Positions 1,038 through 52,514 of a stretch of 64,000 nucleotides of DNA are shown one piece after another. The stretch is from the IMG/VR virus record IMGVR_UViG_3300023212_000371, positions 121,051 through 185,050 of that record; one strand, given 5' to 3'. A program made the translations under genes and the position numbers. The notes under the pieces are model-generated. The model did not search any database. It was not told where the DNA came from and saw only the letters and a program-made list of their open reading frames with translations. Every line of letters starts with the position of its first letter. The stretch's first letter is position 1. Source of the DNA: a virus.

Positions 1038-1083
1038 GTCAATAACCCATGATTAAAATCATGGGCTTGTGCGAAAGGAATCA
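1038..1083 (+). mobile_element. 46-bp solo IS200/IS605-type end hairpin
   Basis: GTCAATAACCCATGATTAAAATCATGGGCTTGTGCGAA nearly identical to the IsrB element end at 46203; followed by ATGA at 1084. Confidence 0.7.
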
Positions 1084-1374
1084 ATGACCAAAGATAAAAA
1101 TAAAGTAGATTTGACACTGTTGAAAAAGTTAGTGATTGAATTGGAGGCTTCTCTTACCACTGCGGAAGGAGTTGTTGAAACGGATCATAATGGATATTTC
1201 GTGGAAATGTCTAAAGGAGCCGGATTAGCCGCAGGAGTCATGCAAGAAGCGTCTATGTTAATTATGGATATTTACGGAGTGGTTCAATCTAAGCAGGGCG
1301 GTGTCTCTGTCAAAGAAAGTTTTTTTGGTGATTTGCTTGGAAAGTTTAAAGGCGGAATTGGAGGTTCTAATTGA
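1084..1374 (+). CDS. Hypothetical protein
   Basis: ORF; AAAGGA RBS-like motif upstream of ATG 1084 favours this start over 1069. Confidence 0.6.
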   Translation: MTKDKNKVDLTLLKKLVIELEASLTTAEGVVETDHNGYFVEMSKGAGLAAGVMQEASMLIMDIYGVVQSKQGGVSVKESFFGDLLGKFKGGIGGSN

Positions 1375-1607
1375 TGTTACCATCTGTTAAGCATTTGTTT
1401 TTGGTGATTCCTTTAATGGCTCTATTAACCTTTACTAACACGTTCATTGGGTTTGTGTGTGGTAGTTTTGTGGATATGCAATTGGAATACAGGGGCGTCA
1501 ATAAGTTTGTCGCTTTGTTTTGTAGCGTTCTGACTGTTTGTGGAGTGTATGTTTTTATGATAGGCAATCATCGAATTCGGAATTTGATTGGTTCGTTAGA
1601 CCGTTAG
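1371..1607 (+). CDS. Small membrane protein
   Basis: Two hydrophobic stretches; overlaps upstream stop. Confidence 0.5.
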   Translation: MMLPSVKHLFLVIPLMALLTFTNTFIGFVCGSFVDMQLEYRGVNKFVALFCSVLTVCGVYVFMIGNHRIRNLIGSLDR

Positions 1608-1624
1608 CTATTGGGGCAGTTAAA

Positions 1625-2197
1625 ATGAGAAAATTATTAGCACTGGCATGCTTGTTAATGGCATGTGCTGCGGACAATAAAAAGGTAATTGTTATTCCGC
1701 CGCCCACGGTAACTGAATCGCCAACTCCTCCGTCTATGACCGTAATTGAACGGGGCGAAGATTGGTCGATTGAAGTTCTTAATGGTTGGGAGAAGGTTGG
1801 GATCACTACTATTCCAACGAATTCTGCTGGAATGCAATTTGTCAATAAGGAGCAAAAAATTGGCTTAGCTGTAGTTAGAGAAGTTTTGCCTACTCATATC
1901 TCAAATGAGGAATTAGCGTTTGGATTTGAATTGTATTTGAAATCAAAGGACATTGGCATCGATGATCTTCGTAATGTTAAACTGAATGACAGATCTTTTA
2001 TTTTGATAGAATTTCATGCTATTCCCCATCAGTTTGGAGAAACAATACAAGTTCAAGCATGGATGTCGGCTGAAGATAAAGTAACTTATACTATGATATG
2101 TGGGTCTGTCATCACTAATCAACAGACACCTGAGCTTTGCAATCAGATGGTTTCCACCTTTAAAGTGGATAACAAAGATGGCATTGTTCAGCCCTGA
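1625..2197 (+). CDS. Putative lipoprotein
   Basis: MRKLLALACLLMAC lipobox-like signal at ATG 1625, Pro-rich linker. Confidence 0.55.
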   Translation: MRKLLALACLLMACAADNKKVIVIPPPTVTESPTPPSMTVIERGEDWSIEVLNGWEKVGITTIPTNSAGMQFVNKEQKIGLAVVREVLPTHISNEELAFGFELYLKSKDIGIDDLRNVKLNDRSFILIEFHAIPHQFGETIQVQAWMSAEDKVTYTMICGSVITNQQTPELCNQMVSTFKVDNKDGIVQP

Positions 2198-2208
2198 TAT
2201 TTAGAATA

Positions 2209-3039: not shown

Positions 3040-3040
3040 T

Positions 3041-4739: not shown

Positions 4740-5383
4740 AATATTTTCTGGATTGTGAGTTCAATGAACGTGGATATGAACATCGGATCGAACTGATCTC
4801 GATTGCCTTGGTGCGAGAGGATGGCGAGGAATACTATGCGGTAGCTAGAGATGGTTGGGATCCTTGCCATTGCGATGGTTGGTTAATGGCTAATGTTTTG
4901 CCGTATCTCTCCAAGGATGGCAGGGTGGATGATGTATCTGATTTGATTGTCCAAATGTATTATGGCATGAAAGTAGATCCTCGTATTCCTTGGGCAAGCA
5001 GAACCTGGATTCGAAATGGTATCCTTGATTTCATTGCTCCCGATGAACATCCTGAGTTCATTGGATTTTTTTCCGATTACGACTGGGTGCTCTTTTCCCA
5101 ACTCTTCGGGCGAATGGTAGATCTTCCTCCACACTTCCCCAAGTATTGTCTCGACATCAAGCAGATGATGGTTGCCAAAGGTCTCCAAAAGAGCGATTTA
5201 CCCAAGCAAGAAGAAACACAGCATAATGCTTTGGCAGACGCTCGGCATATGAGACGAATGTATCAAGCTATTGTAGAAAAGGCGTCAATTACCATCAGCA
5301 CAAAGGCTGATGGCTTGTCCCTAATTATTGCTAATCGAGACATTAACTCCCCTGATTTACCAGATCAGGATCATAGTCGTTAG
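4736..5383 (+). CDS. DEDDh 3'-5' exo(ribo)nuclease (Rv2179c-like); C-terminus extended by an inserted element
   Basis: YFLDCEF, SDYDW, HNALADA; residues encoded after 5283 come from the element (empty site reads GAA AAG GCA TGA). Confidence 0.8.
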   Translation: MKYFLDCEFNERGYEHRIELISIALVREDGEEYYAVARDGWDPCHCDGWLMANVLPYLSKDGRVDDVSDLIVQMYYGMKVDPRIPWASRTWIRNGILDFIAPDEHPEFIGFFSDYDWVLFSQLFGRMVDLPPHFPKYCLDIKQMMVAKGLQKSDLPKQEETQHNALADARHMRRMYQAIVEKASITISTKADGLSLIIANRDINSPDLPDQDHSR

Positions 5384-5703
5384 GCTGATTGACGACAGCC
5401 TAACCTGGGTAGCATATAGCATCCAAGAAGTGTTGAGGTTCTCTAAATAGCGATCATAACCGTCTCTCTTTCCAAATAAAGGAAAGTGCCTTTAATCTCG
5501 ATCATCTCAACTGGTCTAACCTATTGTTTTTTTATTCCTCAAAGGATTGATTGAGGAAACCTGTTAACATTAACTCTTTCTGCTATAACTTAGATAGCAA
5601 AATAATATATAACCTTTATTTTAAGGTTGTCAAGAGAAAAAAGAAAGAAAAATGGCCATTCCTCCCATAGCACAAGGCTATGGGTATCTTTGCCTAAGAG
5701 ATC
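5284..5703 (-). mobile_element. ORF-less IS200/IS605 element (TnpB-type guide-RNA cassette), 420 bp
   Basis: Both terminal hairpins match the TnpB element at 50913-52133; internal minus-strand GTCAATCAGCCTA (tnpB V-N-Q-P tail motif); removal restores a GC-ATGA stop/start overlap. Confidence 0.85.
5604..5633 (-). promoter_or_regulatory. Sigma70-like promoter inside the element, firing toward its guide end
   Basis: Minus strand TTGACA-16 nt-TATATA (or 18 nt-TATATT). Confidence 0.65.
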
Positions 5704-5967
5704 ATGAAAAAGTTTATCATCCATAGAGACTCCATTATTGAAGTGGAATGCACTCAACTCATGCCCGCTGACGATCCATCCGTGGCTTGGCTTCCCAAAG
5801 AGGAATATAAAGCTAGAATTGAAGCACCATCTACCTTGTTTGAAAAAGTTAATAACAAATTAGAAAAACCAAAATGGTATAGTTTTGCTTTTTACGATAC
5901 TTTAGAACAAGCTAAAGAGGCAGCAGCCAGCGATATTCGAGTAGTGTTGGAACGTAAACAAGATTAA
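5704..5967 (+). CDS. Hypothetical protein, possibly frameshifted near its 3' end
   Basis: ORF starts at the ATGA flanking the element; coding-like sequence continues in another frame (IKHGTNFVEEDIKKQI). Confidence 0.5.
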   Translation: MKKFIIHRDSIIEVECTQLMPADDPSVAWLPKEEYKARIEAPSTLFEKVNNKLEKPKWYSFAFYDTLEQAKEAAASDIRVVLERKQD

Positions 5968-6061: not shown

Positions 6062-6678
6062 ATGACAACACGATTTCAAGTTGGAGATTACGTTTTGCGG
6101 ATGGAAGCAGATTTTTCAAGCGGCATATTAGTGCATGGCGGTATTTATCAAATTGCCGGCGTTATTAATGATCCTCGGACTATTAAGTTGATAGGGTTTG
6201 GGGGAGTTGGGATGTCCATAGGTTTAAATTGATTAAATCTCCCTACGCTCAATCTTGTCCTTGTGGCATCCATTGGAGTCAATTACCAATGACTAAAGTC
6301 CTTGGCTTGTCGCTCATCCTACCATAAGCAGGAGGTTATTTTTTAATGGCAACAATAGGCTGATTGACAGCAGCCCTTAATAAAGTTTGGCGTTTCTAAT
6401 AGCGACCCTTTAAAAAAACCGTTTGCTTATTCGATCATAAATGATCGAGTTAAGTGCCTTCTAGGTCTCGATTCGCTAAACATAGGATAATAGCTTTCTA
6501 ACTCATCTCTTACCTCTTTCTGTTACATTTGGGTAGCAAAAGATATATAACCACCATTCTTGGAAGTTTTTTAGAAAAAGAAAGAAAAAGCAATTCCTCC
6601 CATGATTAAAATCATGGGCTTCTTTGCTAAGAAGATCGTGAATGCCCTCAACATATTCAAGAAGTAAAAGCTTTCTAA
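6062..6678 (+). pseudogene. Small phage gene interrupted by the 6278-6637 element plus a 1-nt shift in a G-run near 6200
   Basis: Removing the element gives ...SCPCGIHW-S-ECPQHIQEVKAF* in one frame. Confidence 0.6.
6278..6637 (-). mobile_element. ORF-less IS200/IS605 element (TnpB-type guide-RNA cassette), 360 bp
   Basis: End hairpins at 6278 and about 6591; interior shares ordered blocks with the 5284 element; minus strand encodes A-A-V-N-Q-P-I-V-A tnpB-tail remnant; followed by GTGA. Confidence 0.85.
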
Positions 6679-8882: not shown

Positions 8883-9995
8883 ATGGCTATTAGATTAAGT
8901 AATACAACCATTGATCAAAAATTATATGGTTATAGCATTCGACGCCTTGATGATTGTAGCAACGCTAAAATAACTGATAAAGTAATGTGGTCGTGTTTAA
9001 ATTGCGGACATGCATGGAAAACAACTATACGCAAAATTGTGTGGAAAGAAACGGGTTGTCCCCAATGCGCCGGTAATATTAAATTATCTAATGCAATAAT
9101 TGATCAAAGATTAATTAATAGAGACATTCGAAGAATTGGTGATTATGTTAATGCTAATAGTAAGATTGAATGGCAATGTTTAAATTGTAAATATATGTGG
9201 ATCACAACACCCAGAAGTGTTGTGGATCTTAAAACTGGATGTCCATTTTGTGCAGGCAATTTACGATTAACAAATCAAATAATTGATCAGAAATTAATTG
9301 GGCGGAATATCCAAAGAATTGAAAATTATAATGGCGCTCATTTAAAAATACTTTGGAATTGCATGACTTGTAATTATGAGTGGAGCGCAACACCTGGCCA
9401 CATTCTTAATGGTGGTCGTGGGTGTCCTCGATGTGCTAATAATATTCGCTTGACCAACGAAATAATAGATCAAAGATTGATTAATAGGTCAATCAAGAGG
9501 ATCGGCGAATATTATAACTCCTGCACCAAAATTGACTGGCAATGTTTGACATGTATGCATCGCTGGAAAGCGTTGCCACCTAATGTTGTTAGTCTCGAAA
9601 AGGGATGTCCAAAATGTAGTACCATAGGTATCAATGAAGCGTTAATGATCAGTATTTTTCATCAATATAATTTAGAATTTGAACCCCATTATTCTATTAG
9701 AAATATAGATAATGTAGAGCGCAATCTTATTTTTGATACCTATTTCCCTCTAATAAAATTGGCCATTGAATATAATGGAAAACAACATTATATTCCAACA
9801 GGGTTTTTCAATAGTGATAATCCTGAAGAAGAGTTTAAAAAACAGCAAGAAAGAGATGAATATAAAAGATTATTCTGTAAGAGAAATTCAATCCAATTAA
9901 TAGAAATTGATGGTAGAAAATTCTACAATGAAAGACTCAAAAAGTATCTAATATATGATGTGGTGCCCATGATAAAGGAAATGGGTATTAAATGA
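8883..9995 (+). CDS. Zn-ribbon repeat protein with C-terminal PD-(D/E)xK-like endonuclease (putative homing endonuclease)
   Basis: Four W-x-C-xx-C...GCP-x-C repeats; FDTYFPLIKLAIEYNGKQH. Confidence 0.75.
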   Translation: MAIRLSNTTIDQKLYGYSIRRLDDCSNAKITDKVMWSCLNCGHAWKTTIRKIVWKETGCPQCAGNIKLSNAIIDQRLINRDIRRIGDYVNANSKIEWQCLNCKYMWITTPRSVVDLKTGCPFCAGNLRLTNQIIDQKLIGRNIQRIENYNGAHLKILWNCMTCNYEWSATPGHILNGGRGCPRCANNIRLTNEIIDQRLINRSIKRIGEYYNSCTKIDWQCLTCMHRWKALPPNVVSLEKGCPKCSTIGINEALMISIFHQYNLEFEPHYSIRNIDNVERNLIFDTYFPLIKLAIEYNGKQHYIPTGFFNSDNPEEEFKKQQERDEYKRLFCKRNSIQLIEIDGRKFYNERLKKYLIYDVVPMIKEMGIK

Positions 9996-12674: not shown

Positions 12675-13007
12675 ATGTTTAAATCTCAAGATTATATATA
12701 TTTGGGGTATGATTCAAAAACAGATCAATTTCGATACGAAACCACTATCGTGGATGATGATTTTACTGAAATAGTTATCGCTGCCGCCTCCGCTGATGCT
12801 ATAAGAGCCGTTGTACGAGCCGCTGTCTTGATCGATGTTTATTCTCGAAGAAATCTCAACGTAGCTGGTAACTTAGCGTTATTAATGCAATACGTAGAAA
12901 ATAAGTTATGGATGGATATTAAACAGCAAATTGAAGAGTATCAGAAATTTGTTCCCGCATATCCAAAATACCATGACCAAGTGATGGACTATCTAATATT
13001 TATGTGA
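12675..13007 (+). CDS. ~110-aa multicopy family protein, copy 1
   Basis: MF...VDDDFxE-[variable]-LIDVYSRRNLNVAGNL...YHDQVMDYLIFM. Confidence 0.8.
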   Translation: MFKSQDYIYLGYDSKTDQFRYETTIVDDDFTEIVIAAASADAIRAVVRAAVLIDVYSRRNLNVAGNLALLMQYVENKLWMDIKQQIEEYQKFVPAYPKYHDQVMDYLIFM

Positions 13008-17888: not shown

Positions 17889-17968
17889 CAAGTGGTGAAG
17901 TGTGGATATGAAAGGTGTGGGTCTAGTACTAGTCCCCGGTAGTTTTAGTTAGAAGAACATCGTCAATT

Positions 17969-17988
17969 ATTGCTCAGTTCGCTGAGAC
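17969..17988. repeat. Dispersed 20-bp hairpin, copy 1
   Basis: ATTGCTCAG-TTCG-CTGAGAC. Confidence 0.8.
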
Positions 17989-18063: not shown

Positions 18064-18402
18064 ATGTTTCGATCTTGCAGTATTACATCCAGATCTAACA
18101 TACCTGTAATTAGTCAAGAGAGACCGAATTATGAGTATGAAGTTACTATCGTGGATGATGATTTTTTTGAAACCAAAACTGTTTTTGCCAACGTCGCTAC
18201 TGAGGCAGCCGCCATCGCATTGATCGATATTTACTCTCAAAAAAATCTCAACGTAGCTGGCAATCTAGCGTTGTTGATGCGATATGTAGAACATAATTTT
18301 CCAGCGTTAGATATTAACTTGCAAATCAGGGCATACCAAAATAATATTCCTGAATATTCAAAATACCATGATCAAGTAATGGGTTATCTGGTGTTTTTAT
18401 GA
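18064..18402 (+). CDS. ~110-aa multicopy family protein, copy 2
   Basis: Conserved DDDF, LIDIYSQKNLNVAGNL, YHDQVMGYLVFL. Confidence 0.8.
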   Translation: MFRSCSITSRSNIPVISQERPNYEYEVTIVDDDFFETKTVFANVATEAAAIALIDIYSQKNLNVAGNLALLMRYVEHNFPALDINLQIRAYQNNIPEYSKYHDQVMGYLVFL

Positions 18403-18426: not shown

Positions 18427-18756
18427 ATGTTTCGATCTTTTAATTATAAATACTTTGGATATAACGGTGAAAAACTTCATCGATATCAAGTTATCATTGT
18501 GGATGATGATTTTATTGAAACTGCCACCGTGTTTGCCGTCGCTCCCGGAAGCATCGCCACTGAAGCCGCTGCCCTGATCGATATTTATTCTCGAAGAAAT
18601 CTTAATGTGGCTAGTAACTTGGCACTGTTGATGCAATATACAGAACATGTATGTCCATGGATAGATATTAAGTGGCAAATCGAGTGTTATCAAAAAGAAA
18701 TTCCTGAATACCAGAAATACCACGATCAAATAATGGATTATTTAATATTTTTGTGA
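18427..18756 (+). CDS. ~110-aa multicopy family protein, copy 3
   Basis: Conserved DDDF, LIDIYSRRNLNVASNL, YHDQIMDYLIFL. Confidence 0.8.
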   Translation: MFRSFNYKYFGYNGEKLHRYQVIIVDDDFIETATVFAVAPGSIATEAAALIDIYSRRNLNVASNLALLMQYTEHVCPWIDIKWQIECYQKEIPEYQKYHDQIMDYLIFL

Positions 18757-20777: not shown

Positions 20778-22658
20778 ATGAAATTTTATCATCTTCTTTT
20801 CTTCTTCCTCACCAGTTGCGGAGCCCTCACCCTCTTCTCTCCCGTTCCTGCTCCCATCCAGCCTCGCCCTATCCAATATCTTTCGGGCTCCTCTTTTCAT
20901 CCCGAAATTACCAATGGGCTTTCTAACGAAGACCGCGGCACTTACTATCACTTTGATGAAGGGATTCAGTGGCTTCCCACTGATGTTATGCTTTCATTGA
21001 AACGTCCCTCTTCTAACGTGTTTAAGGTAATGGATGAATTACTGTTAGCTAAGCCAGAACGTTTTGGTCTTCTCCCCAATTACATTGATGTGCTTTATCC
21101 TAACCAACTTAATCCACAAGCGGACATCCCTTTAGGAATTACTATTTCCACCAACACCGATTATGTTCCTATGTCCGGAATATCATGCAGCTCATGTCAT
21201 ACTACCATTATTTCTAATTCCGAAGGACATTTCTTCTTAGTTGATGGGGCTCCTTCTCGTTTTGCGGTAGATCGTTTCGTGGCGGAAATGGTCAAATCTT
21301 TGGCGGCTACTTTGGCTAATCCAGTAGAATTTGAAGCCTTTTATGAGCGCTTTAAAGCTCGTCTTCATTTTGGAATGGGGGAAAGTTATGATCGATTAAT
21401 ATTGCTCAGTTCGCTGAGACTCAAAGATCATCCTGACCTTAAGGCTCTAGCTCCAGTAGTAGAAAAAGCCTTTAATACCAATGATTGTCAAGAATTGCAA
21501 ACCAAACTTTCTACTATTTCTAATCCCATTACCTATCGTTTTCAGCGTTTTACAACCCTTGATTCTGCCTATCCAACTTATGCTATGCTTGGCAATCAAC
21601 AGGGAATGTATTTCTATTTGGTCAAGCGTTTCATCTTCTTGTTGGAACAAACGAAATATGGAACGGCTGACAAAGATTCTTTGGTGGCAGAAAGTGGATT
21701 GGGGCGAGCTAACCCATGGAGTGTAGCAAAGAAACTCATCTCCGATAAATATTTCCATCTCAAAAACGCAGTCCATGTAGAAGGTGGGCCAGTAAGCACT
21801 CCCTATATGTGGGATTATGATCGCCAAACTTGGGTCTTTTGGAGCGGAACCACTAACTCTATGCTGGAACGCAATTTGGCTCAATGCACTACTCTTTTGA
21901 CCGATTTTAATGAGAAAACTTACGAGACCACCTGCTCCGTCAAGAAACTTCAGGACATTTCTTATTATGCTCAAAAAATTCAAGCTCCCAAGTGGCCCGA
22001 AGCAATTTTAGGCAGCATCGATACCGATAAAGCTAATAAGGGCAAAATCATCTTTCAGGATAAATGTTTAAATTGCCATGATCCCAAAGCTTCTTATACT
22101 CTCACCGGAACCGCTTCTTATACCTATATAAGTGTTGGAACTGATCCTAACTATATTCAAGGACAACTGGAATTAATTAATAAGAAAGATATTTTTACTG
22201 GTATGATTGCACCATGGATTAATCATGTAAAGGAAGTAGCCGCCCTTCAAATAGAAGGTTTAATTTATATAGATTTGTTAAATTATGAGAATGGAAGATT
22301 GCCAGCTACATGGCGCAGTCCAGAGTTGAATCGAATCGAAGCGAAACCACTTGCTGGTGTCTGGGCTACTGCACCTTATCTTCATAATGGAAGCGTGCCC
22401 ACTATTTGGGATTTATTGCAACCAGTGGATCAGCGCCCCCATCGATTTCATATTGGCGGGTTTGTTTATGATACCAAAAAGCTTGGATATATTGGAGATG
22501 AGAATTTGCCGGATGGATTTGAGTTCGAGGTAAATTGTTTGCATTGTCAAGGGAATAGCAATCAAGGACATGAATTTGGTACCGAGCTAAGTTCGGAAGA
22601 TAAATGGAACTTGATTGAATTTCTCAAGTCCTATAATAATGAGACAACATTTAAATGA
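20778..22658 (+). CDS. RoxA-like di-heme c-type cytochrome, probable lipoprotein
   Basis: Two CxxCH (CSSCH, CLNCH); KPLAGVWATAPYLHNGSVPT; GNSNQGHEFG; LTSC lipobox-like signal. Confidence 0.8.
   Translation: MKFYHLLFFFLTSCGALTLFSPVPAPIQPRPIQYLSGSSFHPEITNGLSNEDRGTYYHFDEGIQWLPTDVMLSLKRPSSNVFKVMDELLLAKPERFGLLPNYIDVLYPNQLNPQADIPLGITISTNTDYVPMSGISCSSCHTTIISNSEGHFFLVDGAPSRFAVDRFVAEMVKSLAATLANPVEFEAFYERFKARLHFGMGESYDRLILLSSLRLKDHPDLKALAPVVEKAFNTNDCQELQTKLSTISNPITYRFQRFTTLDSAYPTYAMLGNQQGMYFYLVKRFIFLLEQTKYGTADKDSLVAESGLGRANPWSVAKKLISDKYFHLKNAVHVEGGPVSTPYMWDYDRQTWVFWSGTTNSMLERNLAQCTTLLTDFNEKTYETTCSVKKLQDISYYAQKIQAPKWPEAILGSIDTDKANKGKIIFQDKCLNCHDPKASYTLTGTASYTYISVGTDPNYIQGQLELINKKDIFTGMIAPWINHVKEVAALQIEGLIYIDLLNYENGRLPATWRSPELNRIEAKPLAGVWATAPYLHNGSVPTIWDLLQPVDQRPHRFHIGGFVYDTKKLGYIGDENLPDGFEFEVNCLHCQGNSNQGHEFGTELSSEDKWNLIEFLKSYNNETTFK
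21401..21420. repeat. Dispersed 20-bp hairpin, copy 2 (inside the cytochrome CDS)
   Basis: Identical to copy 1. Confidence 0.8.
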
Positions 22659-26568: not shown

Positions 26569-26658
26569 GAATGTATGAATTAGTGAATCGACATTTCCAT
26601 GCAGATTATTGCCGAGTAGGGAAGCATCCACAGAAATGCAATCATGCACTAGAATTAT

Positions 26659-26678
26659 ATTGCTCAGTATGCTGAGGC
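26659..26678. repeat. Dispersed 20-bp hairpin, copy 4
   Basis: ATTGCTCAG-TATG-CTGAGGC. Confidence 0.7.
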
Positions 26679-31254: not shown

Positions 31255-31390
31255 ATCTTAACTCTTCGATATAGAGTTTGAAGCAGTTTAACAAGCCCCT
31301 TACGGGGAAGGTTTTCTGAGGATTTTTCCTTTCTCTCACGAGAGAATAAAGTCCTTGTTTTTCTATGAACAATTCCTCAAAAGGAGAATT

Positions 31391-31436
31391 CAATTCTTCC
31401 CACGGCTAAAGTCGTGGTCTCTTCGAACCATTTTTC
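31391..31436 (+). mobile_element. 46-bp solo IS200/IS605 end hairpin (IsrB-type right end)
   Basis: CAATTCTTCCCACGGCTAAAGTCGTGGTCTCTTCGAACCATTTTTC matches 47517-47562; followed by ATGA start codon. Confidence 0.75.
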
Positions 31437-31763
31437 ATGAGTAATCGAGAAATTCTGTCCAAACTTCTTAAGAATTGGGCGCAGGATCATGATGTTAATT
31501 ATAAAATTGCTGATCCTGATCCCACAGAAGAGGGCTTAAAAAAGACTGGCGGTTATCTAACTTGGGTTATTCGAAATGGACATATCAATCTGGATTTAGT
31601 GTCTCTTTTGGATAGGTTAGAAATTTTTCTAATTAATCGAGAAAAACACGCTTCTACAGCCGGATTGTTTTGCCAGAAATGTGGAACTTATTGTCCTTTG
31701 TCTGCGCCTAATCAGGAAGATGGTGGTTTTGTCTGTTATTCTTGCCGACATCGACCTTACTAA
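31437..31763 (+). CDS. Hypothetical protein with C-terminal Zn ribbon
   Basis: CQKCG...CYSC. Confidence 0.6.
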   Translation: MSNREILSKLLKNWAQDHDVNYKIADPDPTEEGLKKTGGYLTWVIRNGHINLDLVSLLDRLEIFLINREKHASTAGLFCQKCGTYCPLSAPNQEDGGFVCYSCRHRPY

Positions 31764-32861: not shown

Positions 32862-32889
32862 GTCAATTACCAATGACTAAAGTCCTTGG
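32862..32889 (+). mobile_element. Truncated IS200/IS605 end hairpin abutting tRNA-Ser
   Basis: 28 nt identical to 6278-6305. Confidence 0.75.
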
Positions 32890-32992: not shown

Positions 32993-33038
32993 GTCAATTA
33001 CCCATGATTAAAATTATGGGCTTCCTTGCTTAGAGATC
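32993..33038 (+). mobile_element. 46-bp solo hairpin with left-end 5' part and right-end 3' part
   Basis: GTCAATTACCCATGATTAAAATTATGGGCTTCCTTGCTTAGAGATC followed by ATGA. Confidence 0.75.
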
Positions 33039-35375: not shown

Positions 35376-37274
35376 TTAGACACAGTCATAACCAGTTATA
35401 GTTACTGATTCAAGGGTTCCAGAAGCGCCCGCGGCTGCAAATTCTAAGGTCATGGCAGTTGCAGCGGAACCGACAATATTAAGACCGCTGATATTAAGGC
35501 TGCGAACGTCATTAGAGATAGCCGATAAATACTGGCTCCATAGAATAGTTCCGGTTCCTGTTACGCCATCACGCAAATTAACTAAAGTAGCAGCGTTGGT
35601 AGCAGTACCCGCAAAGCTAGCAGAAACGCTAGTGCAGACATGTCTAACACCTGCCGCTCCTGCTGCCTTGGTTGCAGTCGCTTGAGTAGCCGCAGATGGT
35701 GTGCTAACTACTGTCCAGTTACCAGGTAACACAGTAAGTTCTGCGCCAGTGGAACTGAAAGCTGATAAATTAGCCGCTGCACCCGATCGAGCCCGATCCA
35801 TATTGGTGCCATTGAATAACGCTGGATTTTCTGCCACGATATTAACCGCCGGCATAGCATCGGCAGTAGCAGAACGTTCAATGTAGTAGAGTTGTGATGC
35901 CGGATCATAAAGAGCTTCTTCTTCAATGCCGATACCATCTGGTAAGAAACCGTTAGTGCCGGGGCCCAGTACCGAATGTTGATCCCATTCAACTGTCGAG
36001 TTTTGAGCGTGTGAAAATTGAGTTGCAATTTGGAGTGGAACAGTTGTAGAACCAACAGTATAGGTTGCTGATACATAGTTGGTTTCTGGATTGGATCCAA
36101 CTCGATCAAGAATAACTTTCTGTCCGGGAATTAGGGTAGTTGGCGCGCTATTAAGCGTAAGAGTGGTGCTATTAGCAGCCAAAGGATTATTGGAAATAGT
36201 TCCGCTTCCCTTACCTTTAGCATTAACGTTACGGGCTCTATCGAATTGGAAACCAGAAAGCACGCTTCCATTTGCTAATGGGTTGCCATTCCATTCGTAT
36301 TCAGCCGCAATTGCAGTACCGTTGCCAGAAGCACCATCAAGTTCGCCACCTGCGGAACGTTCTAATTCGGCTAAGTTGGCATTTGTGTTAAACAAATAAG
36401 TCATTGATGCTGACAAACCAGTCAAAGCAATGTTATTACCTGCACCAGCATCGCGAGCAACGTTATAGTGAAACCAGCTAAGTGTTTCGTTGCCCGTATG
36501 GTTAGCTTTAAAGACGGCGGTAATTGAAGTGCCGCTTGGAACTGCACTGACGAAAATGTTTTCTGGATTGGTTCCACCCACCGCGACATAATCACCAATT
36601 TTTATGTTTGTCGTGGATGTAACAGTAATAGTTTGGGGCGAGTTGCCGCCGGTGATAGCGCCTTGATTGATAGTTGTGCTAAAAGGTATTGCAAATTGAG
36701 AGCTACCAGCGGTAAGACCCGAGGCTGGCTGACCGTCAAACGCCGTTGAACGTTGGCGATCATAGCCCCCTGAGTTAATACCGTTGAGATTAGAACACGG
36801 ATTAAGAATAGCTGTTGGGCCCGATACATCTAATTGAAATGCCGTGCCACTAGGGACTTGGTTATCAGCATTACGACCTTGCGTTGTGCCAACAACATTT
36901 ACACCGTCTCCAATCTTGATTGGAATTGGGTTATTATTAGCAAGAACCGCATTACCTTGCGATAATTGAACGGGAATAGGATTATTTGCTGCTAATACTG
37001 AACCACTTTGGGATAATTGACTTGGAATGGGATTGCTAGCAGATAACACTGCGTTGCTTTGAGATAGCTGAGCCGGAATAGGATTATTAGCTGCTAAAAC
37101 TGCGTTGCTTTGGGACAATTGAGCTGGAAGTGGATTGGTCGCTGTAATATCACCACCATCCGTATCCAAAGATCCAATACGAACCTTGATTACTGGAATT
37201 TTATACGCACCAATGTCCTCGGTTGCGATATTATCACCACCAGCTCCTGGATTAATCCTTGTATTATCACTCAT
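35376..37274 (-). CDS. Gly/Ala/Thr/Asn-rich putative virion structural or fibre protein
   Basis: Composition; N-terminal tandem repeats; internal duplication. Confidence 0.6.
   Translation of the reverse strand: MSDNTRINPGAGGDNIATEDIGAYKIPVIKVRIGSLDTDGGDITATNPLPAQLSQSNAVLAANNPIPAQLSQSNAVLSASNPIPSQLSQSGSVLAANNPIPVQLSQGNAVLANNNPIPIKIGDGVNVVGTTQGRNADNQVPSGTAFQLDVSGPTAILNPCSNLNGINSGGYDRQRSTAFDGQPASGLTAGSSQFAIPFSTTINQGAITGGNSPQTITVTSTTNIKIGDYVAVGGTNPENIFVSAVPSGTSITAVFKANHTGNETLSWFHYNVARDAGAGNNIALTGLSASMTYLFNTNANLAELERSAGGELDGASGNGTAIAAEYEWNGNPLANGSVLSGFQFDRARNVNAKGKGSGTISNNPLAANSTTLTLNSAPTTLIPGQKVILDRVGSNPETNYVSATYTVGSTTVPLQIATQFSHAQNSTVEWDQHSVLGPGTNGFLPDGIGIEEEALYDPASQLYYIERSATADAMPAVNIVAENPALFNGTNMDRARSGAAANLSAFSSTGAELTVLPGNWTVVSTPSAATQATATKAAGAAGVRHVCTSVSASFAGTATNAATLVNLRDGVTGTGTILWSQYLSAISNDVRSLNISGLNIVGSAATAMTLEFAAAGASGTLESVTITGYDCV
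36921..37140 (-). repeat. Four 17-aa (51-bp) tandem repeats NPIPxQLSQxxxVLxAx
   Basis: Read from translation of 35376-37274. Confidence 0.8.
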
Positions 37275-43267: not shown

Positions 43268-43600
43268 ATGTTTAAATTCTTTGAATGGAAATATCTAGGT
43301 TATGATCCAAAAACAGATCAGTATCGATCCGAAATCACTATCGTGGATGATGATTTTACCGAAACCCTCGTCGCCGCCTCCCCAATCGGCGGCGAAGCCG
43401 TTGTTCCACCCGCCACCACCGCCTTAATCGATATTTATTCTCGAAGAAATCTCAATGTGGCTGGTAATCTCGTGTTGTTGATGCAAGATATAGAAAGTAA
43501 ATGGCTAGACATTAAACTACAAATCGAATATTATCAAAAATATATTCCTGAATATTCAAAATATCACGATCAAGTAATGGGTTATCTAATATTCACATGA
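43268..43600 (+). CDS. ~110-aa multicopy family protein, copy 6
   Basis: Family motifs; most C-rich variable segment (43364-43423). Confidence 0.8.
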   Translation: MFKFFEWKYLGYDPKTDQYRSEITIVDDDFTETLVAASPIGGEAVVPPATTALIDIYSRRNLNVAGNLVLLMQDIESKWLDIKLQIEYYQKYIPEYSKYHDQVMGYLIFT

Positions 43601-44120: not shown

Positions 44121-44664
44121 ATGGATATTAAACCTTTAAGAGATCATGTTGTCGTAGTGAACTACCTTTGCCTAAGGGCAAAAGCTTCGCGTTTCATTGA
44201 CCTAATACTACTAGCGCCTCACCGCGTTTTTGTTTAATGTCCGACTATATTCCGTAACCAGACAGGTTTTCATTACGCTATTATGACTTGGTTTTCGTCA
44301 ATCTTAGCTTAATGTTATATATCACCATATGCGTACTTTTGTTAAAATATTTTTGAGAAAACGCATTCATCTCTCGCCTAAAGGCGAGAGTCTTCTGCTA
44401 TCAATCATGATAAAAGATGCTGCCCCCGATAAAATAGCGGGAGGATTATTATATAAGCCCGATATTGTGGAGGAAGAATTTATTACCGGAACTGTGGTGG
44501 CTATTGGTTCTGGTAAAATTGCTGCAGACGGTTCTACCGTTCATTTGGAAATATCCATTGGTGACAAGATTGTTTTCAATAGACATGCACCAGTTAAATT
44601 GAAAATCAAAGATCAAGACTATTTAGTTCTGCGCGAAGATCAGGTATTGTGCATTTTGCCATGA
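44121..44664 (+). pseudogene. groES: Co-chaperonin GroES split by a 250-bp element
   Basis: 44121-44156 MDIKPLRDHVVV joined to 44407-44664 MIKDAAPDKIAGGLLY...GTVVAIGSGK...LREDQVL gives a 97-aa GroES; AGGAG RBS upstream. Confidence 0.88.
44157..44406 (-). mobile_element. ORF-less IS200/IS605 element (TnpB-type guide-RNA cassette), 250 bp
   Basis: Minus strand ends ...TCAATGAAACGCGAAGCTTTTGCCCTTAGGCAAAGGTAGTTCAC; other end hairpin CTCTCGCCTAAAGGCGAGAG; minus-strand TTAACA-18-TATATA (44345-44316). Confidence 0.85.
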
Positions 44665-44676: not shown

Positions 44677-45627
44677 ATGGAGTTTAGTATGGATTATACA
44701 TTAGATGTTGTTAGTTCTCATCCTGAGCATCAGGGTAAGACCTTTCGCAAATACATAGTAGAGGGTATTGAAACTGTGGGAGTCGCCTATGATGAAAAAT
44801 TTGAAATTCGTTTTACCAATCATACTTGGCAAAAAGTGCAAGTTAAGATCACTTTGGATGGAATCGATGTTTTAACAGGAGAGTTAGCTACTATTGAGCC
44901 TACCAAGGATATGTGGGTGGTGCAACCTTATGGAATTTTATCGATTAAAGCTTGGCCGGAAACAGATCAAGGCGGGGCAGGTTTTGTTTTTACTCATGCC
45001 GGTAATAGTGTCGCCGTTCATACTCAAAGCGATTTGACGCATCGAGGAATTATTGCAGCTGCGGTTTATGTAGAAGGACATATGGAACCGTTGAAGTTGA
45101 ACCCTTGGGTACCCTTGGGTACTTCGCCTTATGTGTTGTATACTGGGAATAAAATTACTTGGGTTGTTCCTAACACTTGGGTTGTTCCTAACACTTGGAC
45201 ATATTCTAACACTTCGACGTATCCTAACACTTTTACTATTCAAGCGCAAAATGCTGCAAGTCTTGCATTTGGTGGTTATGGTGGTGGGGGCAATTGTTCT
45301 GCCTCTTTTTCTTGCACTGCGAATGTTCCCAATCCAACTAGCACGCAGGATCAACAAAGCTTACCAGCGGTAGGTGCTGGACAATACACTGCGCAACAAA
45401 TTACTTATTCTGCTGGATTAGTCAAACCAATGTTTTCTCAGATTATTCGAGTGAGATACCTTTGGTGGTCAGATTTGGCTAACAAGCTGGTTAATCCAAC
45501 GGCAACCTCATCGCATCCATCAGGATTTCCTTCGGATACCAACGAACGAATTAATCTTGGAGCTACTCCTATAATTGGTGAGTCTGATATGGTTACACTT
45601 TATTCTCAACCTTTTACTCGTTTTTGA
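44677..45627 (+). CDS. Hypothetical protein with internal tandem repeats
   Basis: Long ORF. Confidence 0.65.
   Translation: MEFSMDYTLDVVSSHPEHQGKTFRKYIVEGIETVGVAYDEKFEIRFTNHTWQKVQVKITLDGIDVLTGELATIEPTKDMWVVQPYGILSIKAWPETDQGGAGFVFTHAGNSVAVHTQSDLTHRGIIAAAVYVEGHMEPLKLNPWVPLGTSPYVLYTGNKITWVVPNTWVVPNTWTYSNTSTYPNTFTIQAQNAASLAFGGYGGGGNCSASFSCTANVPNPTSTQDQQSLPAVGAGQYTAQQITYSAGLVKPMFSQIIRVRYLWWSDLANKLVNPTATSSHPSGFPSDTNERINLGATPIIGESDMVTLYSQPFTRF
45157..45228 (+). repeat. Four 18-bp tandem units (TWVVPN x2, TWTYSN, TSTYPN)
   Basis: ACTTGGGTTGTTCCTAAC twice plus two diverged units. Confidence 0.8.
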
Positions 45628-45655
45628 TTAATTATTTAACAAAGGAATTTTATTT

Positions 45656-45910
45656 ATGAAAAACTCAGCCACCCAAGCCAAGTTTCCATTCGAAGAAGTA
45701 GATCATGTTTTCGGAGCCCTTTTCACCGCATTTCATGTAGAAGAAAGAGAAGACCCGCACTCCCAGTTTCTGGCGCTTTGGGTGCTTTTCTTGCAATGTG
45801 CAGGATGGACAGAAGATGAATATTGGGCAGCGGTAGATGAATTGAACGACGAAGAAGCATTAGATGACGAAGAGACATTAGAGACAAACGATAAATCAAA
45901 ACAGAATTAA
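45656..45910 (+). CDS. Acidic hypothetical protein
   Basis: ORF with AAGGA RBS. Confidence 0.6.
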   Translation: MKNSATQAKFPFEEVDHVFGALFTAFHVEEREDPHSQFLALWVLFLQCAGWTEDEYWAAVDELNDEEALDDEETLETNDKSKQN

Positions 45911-45923: not shown

Positions 45924-46217
45924 ATGCCAATGATGCCAGAAAAGACTATAGTTTATCTTGTGATAGAAGAAGATCATGATCATATTGATGGTCATTGCCA
46001 TCATGAAATTATTGGCGGCTTTTTTACTCAGGAAGAGGCGCTGGCGAAATGTGCTGAGATGGAGCAAAAACAAAAAGCACGACATGCTTTGACTAATAAA
46101 TTAAGGCAAGCTAAGAATAGTTTTGATGAAGAAACGAATCGTTTTTTCCTGTGCCAACTGAAGAGCGAACAGATTGTTATTTCAATTTTGCCACTCAATC
46201 TTGTCAATAACCCATGA
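45924..46217 (+). CDS. Hypothetical protein; last codons supplied by the IsrB element end
   Basis: Empty site would read ...PLNL-M-I-stop. Confidence 0.55.
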   Translation: MPMMPEKTIVYLVIEEDHDHIDGHCHHEIIGGFFTQEEALAKCAEMEQKQKARHALTNKLRQAKNSFDEETNRFFLCQLKSEQIVISILPLNLVNNP

Positions 46218-46520
46218 CTAAAGTCATGGGCTTGTGCGAAGGATCCTAGTCAGATTCTTTTGATCAAGACTAAAATATTGTACTAGACAAAGAGAGAAGA
46301 AAGGTTATTTAACCAAACAATATTTCAAATAGGCAAATCAGGATCGTTATGACGAGACTGGAAAAGATATGCTACTGGATGTTTCGCTAGTCTGTAGCCG
46401 CATTTCCGCAAGGAGATGCCAATACCTTATCGATAATTGTAAGGTATTCGCTGTGTTTTGCTTATGTCGAAGCGAGTTGAACAAGGCACGTAAGTGCAAT
46501 TTTTGAGGAAATAATAGAAA
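46203..46520 (+). ncRNA. omegaRNA (HEARO-like) scaffold; guide would be the flank 5' of 46203
   Basis: GTCAATAACCC hairpin, TTGATCAAGACTAA, GGATGTTTCGCTAGTC, GTCGAAGCGAG blocks; 3' boundary approximate. Confidence 0.7.
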
Positions 46521-47562
46521 TTGGTTCCCGTTATCGATAACCACAAACAACCATTAATGCCTTGCTCTGAAAAGAGAGCACGGAGACTTATGGAGAAAGG
46601 CAGCGCTATCTCATATTGGCAGAAAGGTATCTTCTGTGTCCGTCTAACCAGAGAACCTTTTAACCGAAAGACACAACCCATTGCTCTTGGCATTGATCCA
46701 GGAAGTAAAAGAGAAGGATATACTATTGCTACTAGAAAGGCAGTAGTTCTCAATATCACAACTAATACTACAGATTGGGTCAAAGATCATATTGATACTC
46801 GAAGACAACTACGAAGAACAAGAAGAACTCGTAAAACCCCCTATCGTTCTTGTCGAGAAAATAGAGCTACTTTGAGGAAAGATCGAGTTCCTCCTTCCAC
46901 CAAAGCTAGGTGGAATGCTAAATTGCGAATGGTTAAATTTCTTCTGAAAATTATTCCTATTACCATTATCAATGTAGAAGATATTGCCGCTGCCACTAAG
47001 AAAGGGCAGGCAAAGTGGAATCTTTCTTTCTCTCCTTTAGAAGTGGGAAAGGTTTGGTTCTATCAAGAAATAGAAAACCTTGGAGTTCAGCTTCTCAAAA
47101 CCCAAGGACATCAAACTCAAGAAAAACGAGATCAACGAGGCTTTCAAAAATCATATTCCAAGCTTAATTATTCTTGGAATGCTCATAACGTAGATAGCCA
47201 TGTTCTTGCGGAGATAGCGATGGAAACAGAAATCCTTCCATATTATGGATTGTGGAAAGTGGAGTTTTTAGAGTTTCATCGAAGACAACTTCATGTTCAG
47301 AATCCAATCAAGAATAATGTTAGAAAACAATATGGCACAACTATTTCTATAGGAATGTCAAGAGGATCTGTTGTAAGATATAAAAACAAGTTTTATTATC
47401 TTGGTGGAAGTAGCAAAGGTAAAGTTTCAATTCATAGTATTATTACAGGAAAAAGAGTTAAACAATCCGTCAAAAAGAGAGATATTGACGTCTTATATAC
47501 ACAGAATAGGAGAGTTCAATTCCTCCCACGATTAAAATCGTGGGTCTTCTTGAACCATTTTC
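46203..47562 (+). mobile_element. IS200/IS605 IsrB (OMEGA) element
   Basis: Left hairpin at 46203, omegaRNA-like leader, RRXRR ORF, right hairpin 47517-47562, ATGA at 47563. Confidence 0.88.
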
Positions 47563-47597
47563 ATGATTTGAAAAATAAGGATCATATGTATGTCTAA
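46521..47597 (+). CDS. isrB: IsrB RNA-guided nickase (IscB-like, lacking HNH)
   Basis: PLMP, RuvC-I GIDPGSK, Arg-rich bridge helix RRQLRRTRR, RuvC-II EDI, RuvC-III HNVDS; no HNH insert; 358 aa. Confidence 0.82.
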   Translation: MVPVIDNHKQPLMPCSEKRARRLMEKGSAISYWQKGIFCVRLTREPFNRKTQPIALGIDPGSKREGYTIATRKAVVLNITTNTTDWVKDHIDTRRQLRRTRRTRKTPYRSCRENRATLRKDRVPPSTKARWNAKLRMVKFLLKIIPITIINVEDIAAATKKGQAKWNLSFSPLEVGKVWFYQEIENLGVQLLKTQGHQTQEKRDQRGFQKSYSKLNYSWNAHNVDSHVLAEIAMETEILPYYGLWKVEFLEFHRRQLHVQNPIKNNVRKQYGTTISIGMSRGSVVRYKNKFYYLGGSSKGKVSIHSIITGKRVKQSVKKRDIDVLYTQNRRVQFLPRLKSWVFLNHFHDLKNKDHMYV

Positions 47598-49574: not shown

Positions 49575-50870
49575 ATGCTATTACTTCTGCTTTTCAATCC
49601 ATCGGCTACTGTTTTCAATCCTATTTCACCTCTGCCGGGGCCGGAACCGCTTCCTCCTAGCGGACCTCGGTTTAGAATGGTGGGACGAGACGAAAACTCT
49701 AGTCCCACTCACTTTCGAAGCTGGGTAGTTAATGGTCAGCCCGATTTCCCCGCCGCTCTTTACGGTGGATTGAAATCCGGCATCAATCCTTTACTAGATG
49801 TCAAAGCTTATGAAATTTTCGATCCTACTAGTCCATTTGATTTTAGCCTGCCAGATGTTCTAAATTGGAACACGACCAAACGGGTGCTTCCTGCTGTTAT
49901 TTCCAATTCTCAACTTGCCATTATGGATGGTTATGTTTGGTTATTCGGTTCTCAAAACTCTGCCAAGATTTGGCGAGCCCCTCTTAATAATCCCGCGGAT
50001 TGGACGGATACTGGGGCTACTTTACCTAAAAACATTTCCGATAGTCAGCTAGCCGTAATCGATGGCTATGTTTGGCTATTTGGAGGTTTAACGGATGGAT
50101 ACACTGGGAGCGAAACTGATGAAATATTTTCTGCGCCCATTTCCAATCCATTATCTTGGACTAATCGAGGTCATGCTCTACCCAAACCACTGTCCGCTTC
50201 TCAATTGGTGATCGTGGATGGTTACATGTATATGTTGGGCGGAAGATTGAATTCAGGCCCCTATGATGGAATTTGGCAAGCCCCGATTACTAATCCACTA
50301 ATTTGGACGGATACCGGAAAAAAACTTCCCAACAAGGTGTTCAATTCTCAAGTATGCATCACTCGTTCTGATGGATATGTTGAACTTCTGGGCGGACAAC
50401 TTGATGGATATCACTTCACTGATCTTATTTATTATGCTTCCGTTTTCAATCCAACTTCTTGGGCTGTTGCTGGAAGATTACCAGCTCAATGTGCGGGCGG
50501 ACAATTTGCCCAAATAGCCGGTAAGGGATATCTCTTCACGCCTGCCAATATTGGCGCTTCTAACACTCGTATTTTTCGGTGTGATTTCGGAACTAATCCT
50601 TTTGCTTGGGTGGATGTAGTTAATACTATTCCGGGTGAAATTTCTCAATCCCAAATAGCGATAATCGATGATAGATTATTTTTATTTGGAGGTTCGGGCA
50701 GTAGTGTGATTTTTGCTAGTGACCAAATCATCAAATATCAATTTGCCTCACCAGCCGCTTTACAGTATGGATTTATTACTCGCACTCAAGTTTTGGGTAT
50801 TGGTAATGCTAACAATTTGTTCAAAGTGCTAAGCATGCAACCTTGGAAAACCGGATATTTAGATTTTTGA
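49575..50870 (+). CDS. Kelch-like repeat protein
   Basis: Repeated SQLAxxDGYVWLFGG...I..AP..NP..W. Confidence 0.7.
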   Translation: MLLLLLFNPSATVFNPISPLPGPEPLPPSGPRFRMVGRDENSSPTHFRSWVVNGQPDFPAALYGGLKSGINPLLDVKAYEIFDPTSPFDFSLPDVLNWNTTKRVLPAVISNSQLAIMDGYVWLFGSQNSAKIWRAPLNNPADWTDTGATLPKNISDSQLAVIDGYVWLFGGLTDGYTGSETDEIFSAPISNPLSWTNRGHALPKPLSASQLVIVDGYMYMLGGRLNSGPYDGIWQAPITNPLIWTDTGKKLPNKVFNSQVCITRSDGYVELLGGQLDGYHFTDLIYYASVFNPTSWAVAGRLPAQCAGGQFAQIAGKGYLFTPANIGASNTRIFRCDFGTNPFAWVDVVNTIPGEISQSQIAIIDDRLFLFGGSGSSVIFASDQIIKYQFASPAALQYGFITRTQVLGIGNANNLFKVLSMQPWKTGYLDF

Positions 50871-50877
50871 TTTGAAC

Positions 50878-50905
50878 TTGACAATTGTATTTTAATAATT
50901 AGGAT
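50878..50905 (+). promoter_or_regulatory. Sigma70-like promoter and RBS of pth2, now separated from the gene by the TnpB element
   Basis: TTGACA-16-TAGGAT; AGGA lies 8 nt before the empty-site ATG. Confidence 0.55.
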
Positions 50906-50912
50906 TAGTAGA

Positions 50913-52133
50913 GTCAATCACCACCAACACAAGGTTGATGGCTTGCCGCTAACATTACTGTTGCGGCATATGGCTCATTGACCAGAGCCTGCTCCTTGTC
51001 TATCAAGGAGAGAAGTTCGCAAGCATTTTGCTTGCTCTGCTTTTCAAGCAGATAATTGTTTCGGATGTTGATAGCAGCGTTGAGATCTGCATTACTTTTA
51101 AATCCACACTTACCACAATTAAACAGAGATCTGTCCCGATTAACTTTCTCGGTATGTCCACAGTTAGAACATTTTTGGGAAGTATAGCGAGCATCTACTT
51201 TAACTATTTGCTTCCCAAGCTCTTCTGCTTTATATACCAAAAATTGTTCTAATTGGTAGAACGTCCAATTAGCAAGCCAACCGTTTAATACTTTTCCTTT
51301 CCTATGTTTTCTGATCCCTGTTAAATCTTCCAAAACGAACACATCATATGGCAAACTAACTAACCATTTGCTGATGATATGATTAATATTACGGCTGAAC
51401 CGCATTTCTCGTCCGGAACGCTTTTTGAGAAGCCGTTTCGCAGAGCGAGTGCCTTTTGCCATAAGTTGTCTTTTCACAAAAAGAAACTTGCGTTTCTGCT
51501 TTCTGATCTCCCATGCATTATATTGTTGTCCGTCCGACAACGAGACGACATTATATAATCCACGATCCACTCCAATAACTTTGTCTGATTGTTTAGTTGT
51601 CGGAGTAGAAGAGGTAAAAGTTAGGTTAGCCTTGAAGCAATTCTGTTGCTTGTTGAAGCCAATAGTAGCGGACTGAAACTTCCAACCACTGTATTTCTTA
51701 AAATAAGAAGGAATGCTAATAAGTTGGCGGATTCGTTTTCCGCTCCAAGAGAAGGAAAGAAGATTGCCCCGAAGAGAAACGGTATTCTTATTGTAGCGAA
51801 TAGCGGAGTAGGGTTTTTTGATAGGCTTGAATTTAAACTTAACAGCTTTAACCGCTTCCAAAGCCTGATCTCGAACGCTTTGAATAACACAGGATGGAAT
51901 GTTAGGGAACTCTTGGCGGAGTTAACGAGTTTGGAAAGCCCATTCTACGTGTCGATTGAAGATATCGGAGCAAGTTTTTAGGTAATCGAGGAAGCCGGCG
52001 GGAACTTCAATTTTGATGGGCAGAGTTCGTTGCATTCAAAACATATATGTCATTATTGATAGATGTTGAAAGAAAAAGAAAGGGGCAGCTATTCTCATAG
52101 CACAGGACTATGGATTTCGTTGCCTAAGAGATC
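50913..52133 (-). mobile_element. IS200/IS605 (IS1341-like, no tnpA) TnpB element
   Basis: Minus strand ends GCAAGCCATCAACCTTGTGTTGGTGGTGATTGAC; other end hairpin CATAGCACAGGACTATG...GCCTAAGAGATC then ATGA. Confidence 0.88.
50914..52035 (-). pseudogene. tnpB: TnpB with in-frame TAA near the N-terminus
   Basis: ATG 52035 MQRTLPIKI...WAFQTR* (TAA 51924-51922) LRQEFPN...; RuvC GVDRG, LEDL, Zn finger CSNCG...CGKCG, NADLNAAINI intact. Confidence 0.85.
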
Positions 52134-52514
52134 ATGAAAGACCAAAAACAAGACCCAATAGTTTGTTATCTTGTAGTTAGAGAAAGTTTAGGAATGACTA
52201 TGGGAAAAATGGCGGTTCAATGCTGCCATGGCATTCAATATGTATTGGAAGGATATTATGGTTGGAAATATACTGGACTTGGAACTAAAAGCGTCGAATT
52301 GGTGGATGACTGGATAAAGAGCGGACACCGTAAAGTAGTTCTTAAAGCTGATGAAAAAGAATGGAAGCAATTAGAAGAATTGTCAGAAGATCATAAAGTG
52401 GTAATAGATGCTGGCCTTACTCAACTGGAACCCGGAACATCAACGGTGATCGCATTTTTTCCGATGCGAAAGAGTCAATGTCCTAAAATTATCAAAAGAT
52501 TGCAAGTATTATGA
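52134..52514 (+). CDS. pth2: Peptidyl-tRNA hydrolase 2 (Pth2 family)
   Basis: MTMGKMAVQCCHG, KVVLK, VIDAGLTQLEPGTSTV. Confidence 0.9.
   Translation: MKDQKQDPIVCYLVVRESLGMTMGKMAVQCCHGIQYVLEGYYGWKYTGLGTKSVELVDDWIKSGHRKVVLKADEKEWKQLEELSEDHKVVIDAGLTQLEPGTSTVIAFFPMRKSQCPKIIKRLQVL

Follow-up and report, generated by a model that had tools for sequence, protein, structure and literature searches.

In Microcystis aeruginosa NIES-843, insertion at N|ATGA was verified with empty sites for ISC1-1_MA, which encodes IscB1 (= IsrB), and for the TnpB-only element IS605B-1_MA (PMC4810608, Kapitonov et al. 2016). The two elements have a 5'-GTCA terminus and shared ends, with their genes in opposite orientation (PMC4810608). 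For the ISGst elements of Geobacillus stearothermophilus, a single transposon-adjacent motif (TAM) is recognised by TnpA and by TnpB/IscB alike, ISGst5 having an IscB that uses TTCAT, complementary to ATGAA. IscB genes there tend to share the orientation of the gene upstream, since transcription of the guide has to begin outside the element (PMC10055086, Meers et al. 2023). The IsrB of Desulfovirgula thermocuniculi (DtIsrB; PDB 8DMB) has the TAM NTGA/TTGA, with ATGA accepted (PMC9581776, Hirano et al. 2022), and its residues R323 and Q326 read the G and A of the TAM (PMC9581776). IStrons combine a group I intron with IS605 (PMC4227781, PMC10690162). Here, we describe the insertion sites of elements of this kind in a phage, in a 64,000-nucleotide window covering bases 121051-185050 of a 198,652-bp IMG/VR virus record (IMGVR_UViG_3300023212_000371), for which the CheckV completeness estimate is 46%.

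Eight element junctions were found in the window. They are very probably the target-proximal ends of ISC1 (IsrB) and IS605B (TnpB) elements and of their protein-free derivatives, their placement being shaped by an RTGA target that doubles as TAM and by selection, with isrB ending on the target TGA. Each junction showed a hairpin and a tail of 18-19 nt followed by ATGA (positions 1084, 5704, 31437, 33039, 44407, 47563 and 52134) or, once, GTGA (position 6638), and a right-end profile search of the whole contig returned exactly these eight right ends in the window. The original prediction that all eight lie directly 5' of NTGA was borne out, although the motif proved narrower and RTGA-like. The contig as a whole contains 19 complete elements, a 5'-truncated remnant ending at window position 31436, several orphan end fragments, and a TnpA-TnpB element. 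The tetranucleotide to the right of the complete elements was ATGA in 16 cases, GTGA in two and GTAA in one (base counts A16/G3, T19, G18/A1, A19), with no conservation further out. C or T never occurred at the first position, so the motif is narrower than NTGA. As RTGA accounts for about 1% of positions, a chance origin of the junction motif is excluded (P ~1e-35). The restriction to A or G was also considered as a product of selection for ATG and GTG start codons, and this was rejected since insertions away from starts and in the middle of genes have the same ATGA.

The left ends of the complete elements read GTCAAT, except for GTGAAC in family D, and the flank preceding them is unconserved. 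Subterminal imperfect hairpins occur in every complete copy, at a distance of 9 nt on the left side and of 18-19 nt on the right; terminal inverted repeats and target-site duplications are absent, and no repeat was seen across the element. The GTCAAT end and the hairpin-tail-RTGA end are common to IsrB-type and TnpB-type elements, the genes of which lie on opposite strands, isrB on the gene strand and tnpB on the other. This agrees with the original prediction of IS200/IS605-type elements standing next to a fixed short motif. The elements are ordinary members of the described IS200/IS605 family (ISC1/IS605B) with the described target; the N|ATGA target of this pair was published in 2016 (PMC4810608), and hence the motif is not new. 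Summed, the complete elements make up 5.8% of the contig DNA, and those that bear neither IsrB nor TnpB are protein-free derivatives of 46-460 nt. ORF-based calls over the whole contig (ORF, open reading frame) gave 329 genes that occupy 87% of the DNA, with 302 on the plus strand. Of the complete elements, 18 of 19 share the gene orientation (P = 4e-5 vs 0.5). On its own strand, the sole element facing the other way (contig 118466-118847, 2.2 kb upstream of the window) likewise has an ATGA flank; it is inserted in a plus-strand gene, 9 codons short of the stop.

Judged from the reconstructed empty sites, the ATGA is part of the host sequence and not of the element, because excision restores GroES and upstream stop codons, the start codon of pth2 is required, and the flanks of near-identical copies vary. 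In silico excision of the element at 44157-44406 joins MDIKPLRDHVVV to MIKDAAPDKIAGG. The groES piece downstream of this element matches Cpn10 only from model position 12, and the rejoined GroES aligns colinearly with Cpn10; a related phage has an intact GroES with which it is likewise colinear, to within one residue. The Pfam match of pth2 requires the ATG at 52134, and in a related phage the two genes flanking the TnpB element are adjacent, with no TnpB between them. Three upstream ORFs recover a TGA stop upon excision, and near-identical family-B copies are flanked by GTGA, GTAA or ATGA. It might be argued that ATGA forms the last four bases of the elements, so that the true insertion sites have no common motif, given that the four bases are conserved in every copy and that an alignment of copies alone cannot place the boundary. 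This is extremely improbable, however, as an excision that took ATGA along would put groES out of frame and cost pth2 and other genes their start codons, near-identical copies vary at precisely these bases (ATGA, GTGA, GTAA), and the published empty sites of the same element type put ATGA in the target (PMC4810608).

Four of the empty sites proposed in the original prediction held on reconstruction: an ATGA stop/start overlap at 5284/5704, AGGA-N8-ATG restored before pth2 at 50913/52134, the colinear GroES at 44157/44407, and a site 2 codons before the stop of a gene at 46203/47563. The continuous ORF proposed at 6278/6638 did not, since the join gives a 25-codon open stretch without a start, between convergent genes. 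An exact search of viral contigs with the left flank of groES returned no empty allele, nor did a degenerate search of metagenome contigs with the rejoined GroES codons, and no sequencing run containing the phage turned up in which excision joints could be sought. Related phages were located via the helicase (65% amino-acid identity) and are too distant for nucleotide-level junctions; three further flanking genes had no detectable homologues in them, and the protein adjoining the TnpB element, used alone as query, had no relative in viral contigs. As a separate observation, groES (window 44121-44664) contains an in-frame ATG at 44329, inside the element that splits it after codon 12, and a start there would yield a 111-aa product with a foreign N-terminus of 26 aa.

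The gene context of the 19 complete elements was judged after their excision in silico. The junction codon is a predicted start codon in nine insertions, three of which (including 5284-5703) fall on ATGA stop/start overlaps, and it is a probable start in two more. Another four fall close to a gene end, with 2-16 codons left to the stop; three are intergenic (including 6278-6637), and three are mid-gene, in groES, in a 140-aa ORF and in a possible 270-aa ORF. In the window, ORFs begin at 1084, 5704, 31437 and 52134, which confirms the earlier claim that four of the junction ATGs start the downstream gene. The 140-aa ORF is split by the second TnpB element of the contig and its second half has no start codon of its own; no homologues of this C-terminal half were found, and the mid-gene call rests on the start-less open frame. 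The mid-gene insertions are probably disruptive. An intron or splicing account of them was tried and dropped, with no Rfam match at gathering score or at E up to 1.

Site statistics were computed on the sense strand of the element-free genome, where 1866 RTGA sites comprise 185 start codons (58 of them ATGA overlaps), 45 stop-only sites, 208 intergenic sites and 1428 coding sites. Insertions on start codons (9/17) were far above the 9.9% expected from all of these sites (P = 1e-5), and the genome-wide check for enrichment at ATGA overlaps that had been proposed gave 3/17 against an expected 3.1% (P = 0.015). The motif itself, however, hardly avoids genes: 82% of sense-strand ATGA sites are within coding sequence and 18% outside, compared with a genome mean of 15.4% outside. 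When the 512 strand-specific 4-mers are ranked by their tendency to fall outside genes, ATGA comes 60th. With so little avoidance by the motif, most of the sorting is left to selection. The suggestion that the motif steers insertions to gene junctions therefore stands as regards the enrichment on starts and overlaps but not as a property of the motif, and the accompanying claim of limited damage was overstated, given that seven of the 19 insertions are in ORFs and three of these are mid-gene.

Motif identity together with purifying selection is a sufficient explanation for the start-codon pattern in this phage genome. Start codons constitute 42% (RTGA) to 59% (ATGA, strict start calls) of the non-disruptive sites, and with start codons making up so large a share of the sites at which no harm is done, the excess among harmless insertions (9/12, or 8-9/10) is weak (P = 0.02-0.15). 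The chances appear even that the landing on start codons is purely a by-product, in which motif availability multiplied by purifying selection sets the pattern and neither the ends nor the isrB frame is adapted to the downstream gene. The persistence of miniature elements without isrB at start codons fits this explanation, as does the identical ATGA at insertions away from starts, which marks the motif as intrinsic.

None of the three intact isrB ORFs of the contig, which lie outside the window at 65388-66503, 111164-112210 and 114719-115762, is closed by a stop codon within the element. The ORFs of IsrB_1 and IsrB_2 cross the right-end hairpin and stop on the TGA of the flanking ATGA, and that of IsrB_3 stops on TA|A, overlapping the ATG of the next gene; the ATGs that follow the three copies open ORFs of 1146, 252 and 2565 nt. 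Because isrB stops on the target TGA, insertion at a start codon re-creates an ATGA stop/start overlap, now between isrB and the host gene. In the window isrB, a 1-nt deletion in the tail shifts the frame and the ORF extends 35 nt beyond the element end at 47562; this is the one isrB copy that is not on a start codon. The arrangement recurred among relatives, for which 14 dereplicated IsrB loci of at least 57% identity were collected from other contigs, including phage-like contigs of 394 kb and 412 kb. ATGA follows the element end in 14/14, its TGA is the isrB stop in 10/14, an ORF of at least 50 aa begins at the flanking ATG in 11 of the 12 that could be judged. Among relatives, two reconstructed empty sites are ATGA overlaps. 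More distant IsrBs stop in the hairpin loop, and several of these still have ATGA and an ORF next.

When phage and relatives were pooled, 14 of 16 IsrB-bearing elements were on an ORF start (P = 0.014 vs 59%), a count in which the relatives come from other genomes but are not independent. This excess disagrees with a pure by-product, and so do the isrB frame, the end of which coincides with the target TGA or comes within 1-3 nt of the ATG in most clade members whereas distant IsrBs stop in the hairpin loop, the shifted frame of the only isrB copy off a start codon, and the GGAG-like motifs that some relatives have in the end tail, 5-10 nt before the host ATG. Such GGAG/GAGG-like motifs stand 5-12 nt before the host ATG in relatives L046, L053, L047, L062 and L030 and look as if the transposon end might supply a ribosome-binding site; the TnpB-type end in the phage reads TAAGAGATC|ATG.

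An adaptive origin of this arrangement is possible, though we hold it only tentatively. The clade would have evolved to live on start codons, with the TAM serving at once as target, isrB stop and host start, and the host gene would be translated through coupling to isrB or, in other variants, with the help of a Shine-Dalgarno-like end; insertions would then be near-neutral, and expression of the host gene would be tied to an intact isrB. Stops of isrB on the target TGA with long ORFs opening from the ATG in independent contigs are consistent with such an origin, as are the TnpB relatives, in 3/5 of which the complementary ATG opens an ORF, and the 58 ATGA overlaps, which are the normal coupling device of this phage. 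On the other hand, the relatives are not independent and the reading rests on sequence, three insertions in the phage genome are mid-gene, the IsrB-type end has no Shine-Dalgarno motif, and the enrichment beyond selection is modest. A stronger version seems rather unlikely: that the phage IsrB clade is specialised for start codons, one tetranucleotide being transposase target, TAM, isrB stop and host start, and that termination-reinitiation from isrB would be the sole route to translation for the host gene, which the insertion would have separated from its ribosome-binding site, with addiction-like selection against isrB decay. No mention of insertion onto start codons, or of a TAM that holds a stop codon, was found in any paper. 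The stop-on-TAM architecture and the possible translational coupling, as suggested by the overlapping codons, are the only parts that may exceed prior knowledge.

The assignment of the nuclease genes was consistent with these element types. The isrB of the window, one of four copies in the contig, matched RRXRR PF14239 (E = 2e-38). The phage IsrBs are 347-371 aa long, with an N-terminal PLMP/RRXRR domain, a split RuvC with a bridge helix and no HNH insert. The window IsrB matched the DtIsrB structure 8DMB (E = 7e-32) over residues 2-281 only; the match to IscBs was limited to about 115 N-terminal residues. Between the left end and isrB lies a conserved, structured leader of 250-320 nt (318 nt in the window copy), in which 25 of 41 predicted pairs are maintained via two-sided changes among 13 copies and relatives. 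This leader fits an omegaRNA, the guide of which would be provided by the upstream flank; no Rfam family matched it. Recognition of an NTGA 3' TAM by an IsrB, as cited in the original prediction, is documented for DtIsrB (PMC9581776). All four phage IsrBs conserve R-x-x-Q about 35 residues from the C-terminus, which is reminiscent of the R323/Q326 pair by which DtIsrB reads G and A, in a region beyond the alignment, which covers residues 2-281 only. IsrB used alone as query retrieved no relative from genome contigs.

The TnpB of the window, also one of four copies, matched PF07282 (E = 7e-25), in keeping with a TnpB that has RuvC, a zinc-finger TNB domain and an omegaRNA at the 3' end running into the flank; it has 315 aa, compared with 364-397 aa in the other copies. 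TCAT precedes 5/5 TnpB relatives, and the ORFs opened by the complementary ATG in three of them encode 470, 251 or 85 aa. The sole Y1_Tnp gene (contig 45433-45786, E = 2.8e-42) adjoins a TnpB, in an element with a similar end tail and the flank GTAA. A further plus-strand TnpB of family-D type (contig 191260-192573) has a degenerate target-side hairpin and the flank AGGA in place of ATGA, and is probably an immobilised copy.

The junction motif, the element boundaries, the contexts among the genes and the layout of the ORFs, which recurs in relatives, were all shown here, whereas TnpA activity, TAM use by the phage nucleases, and translational coupling are inferred, in the following manner. 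A Y1 TnpA would insert the single-stranded element 3' of TCAY on the active strand, i.e., the minus strand of the window, and on the gene strand the element therefore always has RTGA, in most cases ATGA, as its immediate 3' neighbour, and the target is not duplicated. These four bases would also be the TAM of both nucleases, and both would recognise the emptied site. IsrB, encoded on the gene strand, would obtain its guide from the upstream flank via read-through transcription and use ATGA as a 3' TAM; TnpB, encoded on the opposite strand, would take its guide from the same flank and use TCAT as a 5' TAM. Genes often start with ATG followed by A, and the phage uses ATGA as its usual 4-nt overlap (58 overlaps among about 300 genes); purging of harmful insertions would then leave about half of the copies exactly on start codons. 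In this clade isrB reads through the right-end hairpin and ends on the target TGA, and at a start codon the resulting ATGA overlap with the host gene plausibly keeps the downstream gene translated by termination-reinitiation.

Several points weigh against this sequence of events. Coupling is unnecessary for persistence, as protein-free miniature elements and TnpB-type elements occupy start codons without a long upstream ORF. Damage is not always avoided, since 7/19 insertions are inside ORFs and 3 are mid-gene. The relatives share ancestry, so that stop-on-TAM is a trait of one clade and not many independent events. The only TnpA of a contig estimated to be 46% complete sits in a GTAA-flanked element, and its mobilisation of the other elements is presumed. 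No nucleotide-level empty allele was obtained, and the boundaries rest on reconstructions and distant relatives.

The results show the published N|ATGA preference playing out in a gene-dense phage, in which IS200/IS605 DNA takes up about 6% of the contig and every second copy, roughly, is exactly on a start codon, with the caution from the site counts that the motif alone does not avoid genes. If coupling via the ATGA overlap is real, it would explain how RNA-guided transposons reach high copy numbers in compact viral genomes at low cost, and a missing ribosome-binding site before a phage gene may then signal such an insertion. The features of the window are listed in Table 1.

Table 1. IS200/IS605-type features in the 64,000-nucleotide window (window coordinates).
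Feature	Position	Strand	Remarks
Mini-element, single hairpin, 46 nt	1038..1083	.	Left end GTCAAT, then a hairpin and a tail of left-end type; ORF 1084-1374 begins with the ATGA at 1084
Protein-free TnpB-type derivative, 420 nt	5284..5703	-	On ATGA stop/start overlap; exoribonuclease-like ORF from 4736 would end on TGA, ORF 5704-5967 begins on ATG
Protein-free family-B element, 360 nt	6278..6637	-	GTGA flank; intergenic between convergent genes; 4 copies in the contig
IsrB-type remnant, 5'-truncated, 157 nt	31280..31436	+	Right end only, without left end; ATGA at 31437 starts ORF 31437-31763
Orphan left-end fragment	32862..32889	.	GTCAAT and hairpin; without right junction
Mini-element, single hairpin, 46 nt	32993..33038	.	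ATGA at 33039; intergenic, no ORF begins there
Protein-free family-D element, 250 nt	44157..44406	-	Left end GTGAAC; derived from second TnpB type; splits groES codons 12/13
omegaRNA scaffold of IsrB element (predicted)	46203..46520	+	Covariation; guide would equal flank ending at 46202
isrB ORF	46521..47597	+	RRXRR/PLMP domain, RuvC, no HNH
ATGA target/TAM of IsrB element (TAM predicted)	47563..47566	+	2 codons before stop of ORF 45924-46202 (+)
TnpB element	50913..52133	-	Between pth2 ribosome-binding site and pth2 start codon at 52134
tnpB gene of this element	50914..51861	-	N-terminally shortened

The phage record also carries tRNAs, homing endonucleases, groES and pth2. Homing-endonuclease-like genes in the window, two LAGLIDADG and two HNH, were noted at 29196-30260 (-), 62311-63321 (-), 8883-9995 (+) and 55312-56472 (+), and the IS200/IS605 copies are thus joined in the phage by several classes of selfish element. 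An ORF of about 110 aa has eight dispersed or tandem paralogues in the window (12675-13007, 18064-18402, 18427-18756, 26720-27055, 27068-27415, 43268-43600, 57723-58055 and 58068-58403) and about 12 in the contig including copies outside the window, with a DNA identity of 60-89%. The hairpin motif ATTGCTCAG-loop-CTGAG recurs, mostly in intergenic positions, at window 17962-17986, 21394-21418, 26652-26676 and 53829-53853, and also directly after the family-B element at contig 120378, and may have a role in termination or regulation. At window 36920-37123, inside a 632-aa minus-strand ORF, a 51-nt unit is repeated in tandem three to four times.

Compared with the known systems, the phage elements resemble the Microcystis ISC1/IS605B pair in the GTCA terminus, the subterminal hairpins, the insertion at N|ATGA without duplication, and the shared ends with genes on opposite strands. 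They may also be likened to that pair in that most of its copies are non-autonomous and mobilised in trans by a Y1 transposase (PMC4810608), a paper in which start or stop codons receive no mention. They differ in their setting in a huge-phage contig, with about 20 copies, 5.8% of the DNA and miniatures down to 46 nt. With DtIsrB, the phage proteins share membership of the HNH-less RuvC nickase family, the PLMP domain and an upstream omegaRNA of about 300 nt (predicted here); the phage TAM, however, is deduced from the flanks and has A or G as its first base, whereas DtIsrB prefers T at 60 deg C. The IStrons are similar in that IS200/IS605 elements are able to sit sense-oriented inside genes, but the phage elements have no group I intron or other Rfam match and show no sign of splicing. 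As in ISGst, finally, a motif shared by TnpA and nuclease is predicted, and a sense bias and PATE-like protein-free derivatives are present; the ISGst elements, by contrast, are bacterial and chromosomal, and no link to start codons or to the stop codon of the nuclease has been described for them (PMC10055086).

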